Shown here piece by piece: positions 2,738 to 55,370 of a stretch of DNA of 64,000 bases (position 1 is the stretch's first letter; each line of letters starts with the position of its first letter). Source of the stretch: Eledone cirrhosa (taxonomy: Eukaryota); NCBI GenBank assembly GCA_964016885.1, contig OZ024743.1, positions 40,486,001-40,550,000 on the forward strand. Direction: 5' to 3'. Both the position numbers and the translations under genes were made by a program. The notes beneath the pieces are model-generated. The model did no database searches. It was not told where the DNA came from and was given only the letters and a program-made list of their open reading frames with translations.

Positions 2738-2813
2738 ACAGATTAAAGTTTAAGCAAAGAATCGCTGCTTTCACCCTTAACGGGATCTTCTGAAACTAAC
2801 AAAGTCAATCTGT
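2738..2813 (-). ncRNA. Variant type I hammerhead-like motif, family A pLTR
   Basis: acagattga..agttt CAGAAGA t-ccc-gttaa-ggg-t GAAA gca..tgc TT aaact ttaatctgt; stems I-III pair by eye. Confidence 0.65.
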
Positions 2814-3405
2814 GAACGCAGAAGTGAATATTTCACAAAACGTTGCAATCGGAGGAAGACAGGAAGACGATACTTAGGTTCGTGGAAACGTTCGCTGGCA
2901 AAGAACGGTAAAAAACGAATATAATACGTCATTATTTGGAGCGGTGAAAAACAATTAGACGCAAAGACAAAACCACGTTTAGGTATAAAAGAAGTCGTAG
3001 ACTAATATTCTCTTAGGTGGTTCATAGAGACGTTCTCTGCCAATGAACGGGTAAAACGAAGATAATACGTCATATGTGGACCGTGGAGAACAATTGCACG
3101 CAAAGACGAAACACTTAAATGGTATAACTGAAGTCGTAGACTAAAATTCTAACTAGGAAACCGAATGATTCTCAGCTTCAGAGTTAAGAATAAAGTTAAA
3201 AAATACAGAGGTAATTGAAATTAAATAAATATATACACGCATCCATATTCGTACATACACAAGCATACGCAGAACACTTACCATCGGTATACAAAACCAC
3301 GCACATATAAATATGTGTGTGTGTGTATGCGTGTATACAAATAAATAAATAATTATATAAACGTATATAAATAAATAAATACCTATATAAGAAGCGCACA
3401 CACAT

Positions 3406-3583
3406 AAACTTTAATCTGTTATTTTAATAAATATATATATATATATATATATATATATATATATATATTTATATATATATATATATATATAGGTATACAA
3501 ATCTACGGTTCTTATATATTTGATATATATTTATCCTTATCGAGCCCTCTTTGGATTTTAGTCTTCAAATTTATTATTATTAC
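3406..3583 (+). mobile_element. Inverted family A pLTR fragments separated by (TA)n
   Basis: 3406-3432 and 3503-3583 are reverse complements of parts of 2635-2751. Confidence 0.8.
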
Positions 3584-5173
3584 TATATATATATATATAT
3601 ATATATATATATATATATATATATATATATATGTATATATATATATATATATGGGGGGAAGTATAAATATTGTTCGATTCACAATGCTATTAAGTCCCAA
3701 CTCCACATTACACTTCTATAGCCTGATGTTAAAAAGGGCAAAACTCCGCCCTTAGTCCTACAAGTAATTATTCATAAATAACTGACATATAGAAAGATAT
3801 ATAAATGAAAATAACTTTCAATTCTCAATTCTGTTATGTGGAAACCTCAATATGGCAGTAATAAAAACGGATTCATAGCTTTTAATCTATTTAGTGTACA
3901 CTTGGAGATAGACACTTTATCCGTTGAAGTGCTAAAATATAAAAGTTATCATACAAATGTCAAAATCTCCGGAAATTAGCTGGCTTTACGTATTGTTAAT
4001 GGGAAGTTATCATGCTGTGTTAAATTGAAAATGGTCATAATTGGCTTATGTTTCCATAGGAGCTTTGATGCGCAAACTCACTAGAAGTGGCGAAATCTAC
4101 TGAGAACAGCAATGTCGATAATTTAGCGAAAGGTTTAAATTGCATGTAAAATTAAGGAAATTTCTTATGAAAATGATTTCAGTCAATTAAGCATCTTTAT
4201 CATGTGTTTGGGATAAAATTATTGCAAAGTGTAAAAGATTAGAGATTTCAGAGCTCTGATAGAGAGATTTTTATTACAAGCACATTAATTGTAATGGCAA
4301 ACCCATTGAATATAAGGATGAGGCTATACTAAGTGGTCATTTGCTTTGGCTACTAAGCTAAAGTTAACTTCTTCTGCAAGGGGAAATCATAAAGGTTACC
4401 TCATTTCATTATGCTATATCCTGAAGCATATCAACATCGATAACTACTTAGACTATGGTCGATAAAAGTCAATGATTTTTCTGGCGACATCTTGTTAATA
4501 TCAACATATATTTAATATATATTCAAACCTAATAAACATTGTTCTTCTGCATTCTTGAATATATAATAGTTACTTATTCGAATTGCAGATGATCTCGTCA
4601 CATATGTATGTTTCAGAATTGCAAATTTAGTTTTAAATTCAATTTGAGTTTTAGAGACACATTTCCCAAAATAGAAAACCTATGTCTACACAGGGGCAGA
4701 CATGACGGCATGGTTAAGCAGTTCGCGTCACCACCATGTTGTTATAGAGCAAAATGATGAAGTCACTCATTTAGAAAACACACATGCTTTCTAGATGACC
4801 ACGTCACCCTTTTGTTCCAGTTGTAGCTGAGCGAAAACAGTCGACAATTCTTTCGGACATCTTGCTCTTTATCGAGACTGTGTATTCTCGTCACTGCTAC
4901 TCGCTGGAACTATGTATACATCCGCTGATTCGCCTAATTTGAAATAGATCTCGTCCTGTAGAATCCATTTCTATAGGAAATAAGGTTATATATATATATA
5001 TATATATATATATATATATATATATATTATTTATTAGAAAGTGAGGTTTTTTTTGTTAAATGAAAAATAACCGAGGTGTCCTACACGAGTGAAAGTTATA
5101 AAGAAAAAAATATGAAATCGAAAATGCAACTGGAGTCTTATTTTATAAAAAAATATATATATTTATTTGGTTC

Positions 5174-5209
5174 CTTTACCGGTTTCGCAGTTCTTCTGCT
5201 TTTCAAAAG
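5174..5209 (-). ncRNA. Minimal hammerhead, U3-A8 core variant
   Basis: Reverse complement of the motif at 5287-5322. Confidence 0.7.
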
Positions 5210-5286
5210 CAGATTTGAGAGTAAGGGTCTGTGGTTTTTCTCACATCTGATGTGAAAAAAACCACAGACCCTCCATCTCAAATCTA

Positions 5287-5322
5287 CTTTTGAAAAGCAG
5301 AAGAACTGCGAAACCGGTAAAG
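5287..5322 (+). ncRNA. Minimal hammerhead, U3-A8 core variant
   Basis: ctt TTGAAAA gcag-aagaa-ctgc GAAA ccgg TA aag; palindromic helix III (accggt), GUA site. Confidence 0.72.
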
Positions 5323-52249: not shown

Positions 52250-52640
52250 CGCACTGGTTCCATATTTGCATACTGTGTCACTCTAGCTTCCCAGTGCCAT
52301 AGTGTGATACCTAGCACATCAGTGCTATAGTGTACAACCCTAACTCAGCAGTGCCATAGTGCGGCACCCTAGCTCCGAAGTGCCGCAATTTGCTACCCTA
52401 GATCCCCATTGCCGTACTACGACATCCTAGTTCCATATTTCTATACTATGTCACTCGAGCTTCCCAGTGCTATAGTGTGAAACTCTAACTCCGCAGTTCC
52501 ATAATGTGGAAGCCTGGCTCGGAAATGCCCTATTTTGCCACCCATTCTCCCCATTGCCATACTGTGACATCCGAGTTTACATATTTTCATACTATGTAGG
52601 TCAAGCTCCTCAGTGCCAAAGCTCCGCAGTGCCGTATTAT
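52250..52640. repeat. Degenerate minisatellite with a monomer of about 29 bp
   Basis: Recurring gtgccatagtgtg.caccctagctcc.ca, about 13 copies. Confidence 0.8.
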
Positions 52641-52767
52641 TAATCTGTCACTGGCCCTTATTGTTTTTAATCCGACACTTAGATTTTTAATCTGACATTT
52701 ATCTTTAACAATTTTAATTTGGCACTGACGCTTATCTTTATTAATTTTAATCCGGCACTGACGCTAA

Positions 52768-53000
52768 CCGAAGTATCGTCTTCCGGTTGCAACGTTTTTT
52801 GAAATATTTACTTCTGTGTTCACAGATTGACTTTTTTAGTTTCAGAAGATCCCGTTAAGGGTGAAAGCAGCGATACTTTGCTTAAACTTTAATCTGTTAT
52901 TTTAATAAATATTTGCTCTACGGTTCTTATATATTTGATATATATTTATCCTTAACGAGCGCTCTTTGGATTTTAGCCTTCAAATTTATTATTATTACTA
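52768..53000 (+). mobile_element. Family A pLTR fragment with HHR motif (52822-52897) and 5' leader
   Basis: Reverse complement of 2635-2880. Confidence 0.88.
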
Positions 53001-53114
53001 TATATATATATATGCGTGTGTGTTTGTAAATATACATATAACACAATACACACACACACACATATATATATATATATATATATATATATATATATATATA
53101 TATATATATATATC

Positions 53115-53362
53115 ACTTTGACCGACCAATCTCTCGGGCGCCAATCGGCGCCGCTGGTCACAGCACGTCGCATTGTTTTAGCCATAAGATAACGCCATCC
53201 CACTGACTGGGCGGGCCGGTGCTCATTTCTACAGCTGAGTAAACTGGAGCAACGTGAAATAAAGTGACTTGCTCAAGGAAAAAACACATCAGCCGGTCCG
53301 AGAATTGAACTGACAACCTTTCGATTGCAAGCCCAGTGCTCTAGCCACTAAGCCATGCGCCT
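53115..53362 (-). mobile_element. tRNA-derived SINE
   Basis: ggcgcaTGGCTTAGTGGctagagc..AGTTCAATTCtcgg (A and B boxes) followed by ccttgagcaagtcacttt body. Confidence 0.8.
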
Positions 53363-55370
53363 ATAAAGGCTTCAACCTCTCTATACAGGTTGAGGCAAAT
53401 CTCTCGGTCGTTAATTACCTCGACGTTACTCTCAATTTATCGAATCGCTTGTATTACCCGTATAGAAAGCCGAATGATACGCTTAATTACATAAGTAAGC
53501 ATTCTAACCATCCTGCCAGCATAACCAAGAACCTGGTAAGAAACGTTTCTTTGAGGCTTTCCCGTCTCTCTATTAAGAAGCATATTTTCAACGACCAATC
53601 GACATATTACAATGAAGCTCTTGCTCGGAGTGGATTTGTCGATAAGGTAGCATATACAGAGTACGAGAATAGACCTAGAAGAAATAGATCCCGATGCATT
53701 ATATGGTATAACACACCATATAGTATGGAGGTGGCCACACCATTAGCTAAGATCTTTCTATCCCTTATTACGAAGCATTTTCCCCCTACACATAAATATA
53801 GTAAAATGTTTAATAGAAATACTATTAAAATGTCTTACTCTACGACTCCTAACCTTGCACATAACATCACAGCTTCAAATTTAGCTAAACTACCTAGCCG
53901 TAGGAACACGTGCAACCCTGTAGTTAGTACTAACTGTAATTGTAGGAATCGGGTGGACTGCCCCCTATCCGGGAAATGTCTCTCTAGTAACATTGTCTAA
54001 AAATGTAAGGTTGAAACACCCTTGTCCCGTAGGGCCTACATTGGGTTAACCGCCAATAGATTCAAGCAGCGTCTTTACATGCATACCCATTCTTTTCGTT
54101 ACCCTCTAAGAAGGAATATGACGTCACTTTCAGCTTATATCTGGAGTCTAAAAGACAACCACACGCAATATAAGTTACACTGGGAGATCCTAGCTAAGGC
54201 TAGATCGTATAACGGAAATAAAAGACCTTGCGACCTCTGCGCCGCTGAGGCCCTGGAAATACTCTACGCCACAGACCACATCTTAAACAAAAAATCTGAG
54301 GCAATTTCGGCTTGTAAACATAAATTGCACAAAACTTCCCTGTATCACAGCGCCACATTATACCCTAACGGATAGTACGATCTATACGCGGATATTTTAC
54401 GTCTTGATGTGGTAGGTAAGTATATGTTATATTTATAACATTAATTATTTGTATAGGTTAGTATAAACTACCTGTATGTTTTGTGAAGGTACGTATACTT
54501 TCTCGAACGTATATTTGATTGTATATGTTATGGCGTATATTTTATATATTCTGGTACATATGCTTTGGTTATGTGTATACGTGAGTTTTGCGTCTGTGTG
54601 AGTATGCGGGTTCGTACGTAAGTAGAGTGTGTGTATATGTGTACTTCGTGCTTTGGTTGACGTACGTCTCCGAACATATGTGTATTTACATGTAGGTATG
54701 TGTGTGCACTTGTTATATACGTATTTATTTATATACGTTTATTTAATTATTTGTATACACGCACACACATACACACATATTTATATGTGCGTGTATTTGT
54801 ATACCTATGGCGAGTGTTTTCGCGTATGCTTGTGTATGTACGTATATGGATACGTGTTGTATTTATTTAATTTCAATTACCTCTGTATTTTATTTACTTT
54901 ATTCTTAACTCTGAAGCCGAGAATCATTCGGTTTCCTAGTTAGAATGTTAGTCTATGACTTCAGTTATACCATTTACGTGGTTTTGTCTTTGCGTGCAAT
55001 TGTTCTCCCCGCTCCACATATGACGTGTTATCTTCGTGTTTTCCGTTCATTGCCAGAGAAGGTCTCTATGAACCATCTAATAGAATATTGTCTACGATTT
55101 CTTTATACCATAAACGTGGTTTTGTCTTTGCGTGTAATTGTTTTTCACCGATCCAAATAATGACGTATTATATTCGTTTTTTTCCGTTCTTTGCCAGGGA
55201 ACGTTTCCACGAACCAAAATATCGTCTTCCTGTCTTCCTCCAGTTGCCACGTTTTTTGAAATATTCAGTTCTGCGTTCACAGATTGACTTTGTTAATTTC
55301 AGAAGATCCCGTTAAGGGTGAAAGCAGCGATTCATTGCTTAAATTTTAATCTGTTATTTTAATAAATATA
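53363..55370 (+). mobile_element. 5'-truncated family A PLE
   Basis: ORFs 53449-54000 (thumb, CNCRNRVDCPL) and 54022-54375 (AYIGLT, CDLC), split by one stop; full pLTR. Confidence 0.93.
55279..55354 (+). ncRNA. Variant hammerhead-like motif, family A, with compensatory stem I change
   Basis: aattt/aaatt replaces agttt/aaact. Confidence 0.68.

Follow-up and report, generated by a model that had tools for sequence, protein, structure and literature searches.

Searches for hammerhead ribozymes require CUGA or CYGA in the catalytic core, in which U4 is treated as invariant. In the Hydra clade of Penelope-like elements (PLEs), canonical hammerheads have been called universal (Craig et al. 2021, PMC8557442), and every Hydra row in File S2 of that work carries CUGA, with U.U under stem II and U17 being common; here and below, statements on published systems refer to the sections of the cited sources that were consulted. 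Natural core changes that are tolerated include U3-A8, A6C, U15.1-A16.1, U10.1.U11.1, and, in a viroid, U4C (Perreault et al. 2011, PMC3088659; Cervera and De la Pena 2014, PMC4209133), the viroid variant having lowered activity in vitro and supporting infection (PMC3088659). Single mutants of the CUGA turn show low activity, and second-site rescue is achieved only by a C3-G8 swap (PMC9901934). Among other PLEs, the Poseidon PAc hammerhead cuts with protein, and its mutants leave in vitro insertion unaffected (Frangieh et al. 2024, PMC11167929), and Penelope of D. virilis has an internal promoter (Schostak et al. 2008, PMC2377424). We analyzed a stretch of 64,000 nucleotides from Eledone cirrhosa (contig OZ024743.1, positions 40,486,001 to 40,550,000; hereafter the window) holding a Hydra-clade PLE whose type I hammerhead motif has A at position 4 (the U4A family). 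This letter is fixed across the family, the variation around it points to a fold under selection, and the element's RNA appears to start on the first base of proximal stem I.

The reference copy was laid out by sequence reading, fold prediction, and alignment, with hammerhead numbering applied to the sequence to place the predicted cut, and 4 further copies lie in the window:

18651-18726, plus: reference copy, type I hammerhead motif
18651-18659/18718-18726, plus: distal stem I, 9 bp
18660-18666, plus: stem I bulge
18667-18671/18713-18717, plus: proximal stem I, AGTTT/AAACT
18672-18678, plus: core C3 A4 G5 A6 A7 G8 A9 (CAGAAGA), with A4 (18673) in place of the canonical U4
18679/18691, plus: U10.1.U11.1 mismatch beneath stem II
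18680-18682/18688-18690, plus: stem II, 3 bp, loop GUUAA
18692-18695, plus: G12 A13 A14 A15.1 (GAAA)
18696-18698/18708-18710, plus: stem III, GCA/TGC
18710-18713, plus: predicted cleavage site CUU/A, cut at 18712/18713
18713-18741, plus: tail after the predicted site, the usual 3' end of insertions, joined to (TA)n
2738-2813, minus: copy in the 5' pseudo-long terminal repeat (pseudo-LTR, pLTR) of a tandem-type insertion, ~200 nt before the start of the open reading frame (ORF)
52822-52897, plus: copy within a short insertion (52776-53001) whose terminus is the second 3' end
55279-55354, plus: copy at the 3' end of a 5'-truncated element (53361-55369), carrying a G-C to A-U double change
40669-40744, plus: fifth, decayed copy with core CACAAGA (G5C) and a stem II mismatch

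The first-pass annotation of this stretch had described 4 intact copies, and each was re-read with the distal and proximal stem I, CAGAAGA, U.U, GAAA, stem III, and CUU that it reported; the decayed copy was absent from its list, and 4 further fragments of the family lie in the window besides the 5 copies. Three helices surround the core with stem I open, as in a type I hammerhead, and G12 A13 A14, the A15.1-U16.1 pair, and H17 are all present, with the 10.1-11.1 pair, usually G-C, appearing as U.U, for which there is natural precedent. The departure lies in C3 U4 G5 A6 N7 G8 A9, where 6 positions fit and position 4 is A in 99% of copies. Across 21 aligned copies, stem cells were paired in 95% of cases vs. 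23-53% with the partners slid.

A relaxed descriptor (C-N-GA-N-GA or U-N-GA-N-AA) applied to 464 kb around the window identified 52 motifs, vs. 3 across 3 shuffles, and the occurrence of the motif in this region is not attributable to chance. Eleven of these motifs were CAGA, all from the U4A family, 33 were CUGA from roughly a dozen families, and 8 were others. Three more recurring CAGA patterns, at 12 loci, were considered as candidate hammerhead families, and none folded as a hammerhead. It had been proposed that CUGANGA descriptors would overlook the U4A motif, and this was the case, as it was for Rfam: none of 4 Rfam matches at E<=10 was a hammerhead, and no hammerhead was among the Rfam matches listed for the window (150 of 182), the window's canonical-core motifs likewise not being among those listed. 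A metagenome pattern scan for the motif returned 0 matches.

The motif ends the pLTR of a PLE that is assigned to the Hydra clade by its motifs and by visible likeness to Hydra proteins. Two stretches of the window show the element:

455-2592, minus: broken ORF with reverse transcriptase (RT), CxCx5C linker, and C-terminal GIY-YIG
17357-18741, plus: 5'-truncated copy with the endonuclease end, a 3' untranslated region (UTR)/pLTR with two ~137-nt repeats, the hammerhead, and the tail

Unbroken frames of 713 codons, containing YRDD and YIG, were identified elsewhere in the genome (L080, L085, L098). The element has a single ORF encoding RT and then a C-terminal GIY-YIG, measures <3 kb before the pLTR repeat, inserts into (TA)n, and occurs in tandem and inverted copies, all as in the Hydra clade. 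Its protein carries RWR, DKT, YRDD, CNCRNRADC (CxCx5C linker), YIG, CDLC (CxxC), and CKH (CxH), in agreement with the Hydra definition of PMC8557442; a Pfam search of the protein gave no relevant match. The earlier identification of a type I hammerhead motif in a PLE pseudo-LTR was right, and the feature of the clade that is missing is the canonical hammerhead, replaced here by U4A. The two ~137-nt direct repeats, about 77-80% alike, lie in the pLTR at 18312-18588, directly upstream of the hammerhead, and are missing or much diverged in older subfamilies.

Fixation of A4 was read from an exact pattern that left positions 4 and 7 free, which gave 18,744 matches in the 3.0-Gb genome vs. 0 for the reversed control. 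Position 4 was A in 18,557 of these copies and another letter in 187, and among the first 100 of the latter, G, C, and T were split about evenly, as expected from post-insertion decay. A4 also sits ahead of the unbroken 713-codon frame at L085, and contigs of 4 public runs, with 4 different organism labels, hold only A at this position, contigs being prone to drop rare variants. The contigs of runs X9 and X10 break at one place, where a GATC lies, and these breaks probably mark library junctions. Of 100 listed copies from older subfamilies, which were found through a different tail and bulge (638 and 135 exact matches), 97 had A4, 3 had G, and none had U (hand count); by script, A4 was present in 25 of 26. 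Candidate U4 copies of the family, matching CTGAAGATCCC, were inversion junctions and not U4 genes (5 of 5 fetched). The young-copy state is A and not U, in line with the description of the variant as family-fixed. That description had named 3 odd features, and only U4A is unusual among them, since U.U at the base of stem II and a CUU (U17) site are common in the Hydra rows of File S2 (PMC8557442) and ordinary for hammerheads of that clade.

The older subfamilies also reveal which parts of the motif are free to change. We aligned 26 of 30 fetched copies, 4 that failed the motif filter having been dropped. N7 is the sole free core position of the hammerhead consensus, and here it was A in 17 of 26 and U in 9 of 26 (U in 37 of 100 by hand count). 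Loop II took at least 5 forms, its first G and last A being kept in most variants. By majority letter, the old copies are set apart from the young ones at 5 places only: the bulge of stem I (where the search pattern itself fixes the difference), loop II, loop III, the tail, and the 3' strand of stem I, which gains a U. The majority state of the remaining core letters and of every stem pair is unchanged. Mean identity to the young family was ~0.8 over the motif vs. ~0.55-0.6 upstream, the upstream value being lowered by truncated copies, and a protein search for ORF copies of the older subfamily reached a best identity of 81%. Among young-family loci picked without regard to hammerhead letters, none of the 85 motif sites was polymorphic (at least 12%), vs. 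97 of 850 sites in the 3' UTR (p=1e-4); a sample partly chosen on the motif had 2 polymorphic sites in the bulge and 1 immediately beyond the distal stem. Template switching may homogenise the 3' end. Variation at N7 and in the loops, with the other core letters and the stems holding, is what continued selection on the catalytic fold would be expected to produce, and it points to selection on a hammerhead fold with A4 in place.

The 5' ends of insertions suggest where the RNA begins, a start that the first-pass annotation had overlooked:

18665-18670, plus: initiator-like TTAGTT (TCAGTT in older subfamilies), with the probable start at A18667, first base of proximal stem I
2797 (minus), 52838, and 55295: equivalent probable start positions in the other 3 copies

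In 1,451 young-family copies, the T before AGTTTCAG is replaced by G. A letter other than T stands there in 2,029 copies, and of the first 100 of these, 77 were truncated at that point, comprising 49 G, 21 A, and 7 C (hand count), whereas one base further out (-2), G was found in 4 of about 58 truncated copies, vs. 49 of 77 at -1 (p=3e-12, hand counts). All 30 G copies that were fetched lacked an upstream pLTR and none reached the ORF; 28 of the 30 stopped at or before +163, either in one of 2 clusters (+163 and +72-75) or earlier. Of 41 matches in one old subfamily, 40 were truncated at stem I or directly before it. Reverse transcriptases copy the cap as an extra G, and the extra G here looks like such a reverse-transcribed cap. 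Because of this resemblance, the mRNA likely starts on the ribozyme, at A18667, and uncut RNA is likely copied. The leader from A18667 has 204 nt before the ATG, with no upstream ATG and no intron seen. In many insertions, moreover, the sequence opens with the extra G and the first base of stem I and extends past the predicted cut site, and we infer that the template of reverse transcription is the uncut capped RNA, with RT starting at the tail end, 18741 (+75 from the start site), and a second 3' end at +163.

Very short copies, which span 75 or 163 nt between the start site and one or other 3' end, are frequent. Short head-to-head insertions were observed at many loci (e.g., L337/L338 and L361/L362), both arms having the extra G, one base apart, an arrangement that suggests fold-back at the cDNA end. 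A splice acceptor supplied by the U4A motif (TTTCAG) was also considered, and no recurring upstream exon was found in the first 100 of 282 junctions, under a filter that excluded exons ending in AG. In the canonical U4 family of the same genome, truncation directly upstream of the hammerhead was seen in 71 of 100 copies (hand count), and this family thus also starts its RNA near the hammerhead, so such a start is not special to U4A; of the 2 families compared, only the U4A family has a start falling on stem I itself.

We give about an even chance to a weakened ribozyme that is still selected, with A4 fixed and CUU/A cut slowly or only with the help of the element's protein. If transcription starts at A18667 and the extra G is a copied cap, the capped mRNA would open with the ribozyme, 204 nt ahead of its ATG, and a fast cut at +46 would strip the cap from it, and reverse transcription would take the uncut RNA. 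A slow core would then cost the element little and may protect the mRNA. The ribozyme may keep a minor or late role in trimming tandem read-through transcripts, which would leave the rest of the core under selection.

Several observations weigh against this account. Because the motif lies over the core promoter and the RT start, part of it could be conserved for reasons other than catalysis. The canonical U4 family starts just upstream of its hammerhead, so protection of the cap does not require U4A, and microhomology to the inverted arm can account for some of the extra Gs (CTTCT-G ends 4 of the 30 loci fetched). Insertion 5' ends form no distinct peak at the cut site, with 15 of 100 at the 2 site positions vs. 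11, 8, and 7 at single positions elsewhere (hand count). Reads of Poseidon element RNA likewise lack a peak at the cut site (PMC11167929), and the canonical U4 family has about 14 of 100 of its 5' ends there, a resemblance between the 2 families that keeps the comparison of insertion ends from discriminating. A 5'-end pile-up at the cut site had been considered from 2 window fragments that start there (3405, 21174), but the genome samples are without a distinct peak in either family.

Covariation and predicted folding also fall on the unfavorable side. Both strands of stem I have indeed changed from G-C to A-U in the 55279 copy, which had been taken as covariation, but the first 100 of 256 copies with G18668A comprise 96 that keep C (an A.C mismatch), 3 with T, and 1 with A (hand count), and the 3 partner changes in 100 equal the background rate (C-to-T in 3 of 67 in the general sample; Fisher p=0.68). 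The double change is 2 independent transitions in one dead copy. In the 21 aligned copies, drawn from young and old subfamilies, two-sided change occurred at 3 pairs, each in one sequence, and no pair measure beat shuffles (values reached in 41-101 of 500); the compensatory covariation of a type I hammerhead is absent inside the lineage. The hammerhead fold, at -12.3 kcal/mol, lies 2.8 above the predicted minimum of -15.1 kcal/mol, making the active fold a minor conformer, and the prediction for the start-site RNA contains no proximal stem I. By thermodynamic prediction, the proximal stem I has a pairing probability of 0.05-0.08 and the 9-bp distal stem I one of 0.7-1.0; folding z-scores were -0.6 to -1.1.

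In order of likelihood, the weakened ribozyme is followed by a non-cutting structural or promoter element, by full compensation of A4, and by a neutral relic. The second of these, a lesser but real possibility, is that the motif no longer cuts and that its fold and sequence are kept as core promoter and as a structure bound by RT beside its start. The probable start on stem I, an RT start 29 nt past the predicted site, and the use of uncut RNA as template would all suit such an element, as would the low activity of CUGA mutants (PMC9901934), the dispensability of hammerhead catalysis for in vitro insertion in another PLE (PMC11167929), and the Naiads, which thrive without canonical hammerheads (PMC8557442). 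What is free and what is fixed nevertheless follows catalysis, with N7 varying and C3, G5, A6, G8, A9, G12, A13, A14, A15.1, and U16.1 not; likewise, the 3' stem arms, which lie outside the core-promoter positions, stay fixed beside a variable loop III.

It is unlikely that A4 is compensated and the ribozyme fully active in the cell, by way of the long distal stem I, a contact between loop II and stem I, or the element's protein. No subfamily has reverted to U, the 9-bp distal stem is predicted to be stable, and most variants keep the first G and last A of loop II, which a tertiary contact with U1.7 would call for. Set against this are the thousands of insertions that extend through the site, the weakly predicted proximal stem I, and a pairwise mutational scan with no rescue of CUGA mutants except by the C3-G8 swap (PMC9901934). 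In its boldest form, which we likewise hold improbable, an efficient A4 hammerhead, owing its activity to a tertiary contact or to the protein of the element, would sit at +1 of the capped mRNA and act as a tuned switch, with capped RNA that is translated and can be copied on one side and decapped RNA on the other. A single killing of the ribozyme by U4A, with the dead motif hitch-hiking in a successful family, would fit the lack of covariation, the origin of all 11 CAGA motifs in 464 kb from one lineage vs. 33 CUGA motifs of other families, and the failure of other recurring CAGA patterns to fold as hammerheads, and is largely refuted by subfamilies with a barely alignable upstream UTR that kept all other core letters and stems as their loops changed repeatedly.

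A4 has been kept through several subfamilies and >18,000 insertions, beside canonical-core families, which offers a natural experiment on whether PLEs need hammerhead cutting, and the probable start on stem I makes that need testable because a cut would decap the mRNA. Cleavage by the U4A motif would widen the consensus for natural cores, whereas a motif that does not cut would mean that, of the hammerhead-bearing families in the 464 kb surveyed, the most abundant one keeps its fold without cleavage. Efficient cutting with A4 would mean that genome descriptors are missing whole lineages of active hammerheads.

Other elements of the window and genome were recorded alongside. The canonical family (e.g., L156:1500) makes up most of 10,787 pattern matches; in some of its copies, a TATA-like box lies ~30 nt ahead of an initiator-like ACAGTT. 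Most copies have their 5' boundary at this ACAGTT, and some carry an extra G. Hammerhead motifs of other families, most of them canonical CUGA, occur in the window at 8629 (minus), 12532 (minus)/12667, 58123 (minus)/58147, 28864, and 11394 (minus)/11788; the motif at 8629 also has U.U under a 3-bp stem II, and those at 28864 and 58123 read CCGAUGA, probably through decay. A motif at 55662 (minus) has a U3-A8 core (UUGAAAA), a known natural covariation, with 4 copies in 464 kb. ORF remnants of Hydra-type PLEs, 27-52% identical to the U4A-family protein, lie at 14371-16128 (minus), 25091-27871 (a large inverted pair), 30093-31725 (minus), and 5706-6128 (minus). From their motifs, we labeled 55675-56613 (minus) as a PLE-like fragment with C-terminal GIY-YIG and CCHH-type residues, 62382-62750 (minus) as a second GIY-YIG fragment, and 59633-61565 (minus) as a non-LTR (endonuclease/RT) remnant.

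In the literature on hammerhead core variants, no natural U4A was found in text and text supplements, figures lying outside this scope, and an earlier description is possible; this covers the text and part of the supplements of PMC4209133 and PMC3088659 and the consulted parts of PMC7229834, PMC6765202, PMC13481778, PMC11014351, and a 2026 bioRxiv preprint. The novelty lies in a single core letter: the ribozyme and its location are known, and the change is fixed in one lineage. Also new are the 1,451 copies that have G right before stem I, nearly all sampled ones beginning at that G.

The closest relative in the same genome, the canonical Hydra-type family (L153-L182), shares CUGAAGA-U ... U-GAAAG, a 3-bp stem II, U17, and 5' ends piled just upstream, and differs in U4, in its other stem sequences, in a palindromic minimal stem III, and in 5' ends ~43 nt before the core; ORF pieces in these loci are 44-49% identical to the U4A-family protein, their tie to the canonical hammerhead being co-occurrence in the loci. 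Hydra-clade hammerheads in PMC8557442 are alike in being type I, on the sense strand, and near the 3' end or pLTR, with (TA)n insertion and the same protein motifs, and they too have U.U under a short stem II (Hydra-1_aJap, Hydra-1_cRog, and most Penelope-n_HM) and frequent U17; the U4A lineage has CAGA, a G15.2-C16.2 pair, and a 9-nt loop III, whereas the Hydra rows have CUGA. Poseidon PAc and D. virilis Penelope resemble it in an internal RT start that gives the tail, an uncut RNA template, and an internal promoter in the pLTR (PMC11167929, PMC2377424). In contrast, the PAc core has C3-G8 and its cutting with protein has been shown (PMC11167929), and D. virilis Penelope has an intron after its start (PMC2377424), whereas the U4A family apparently starts on stem I, with no intron seen.

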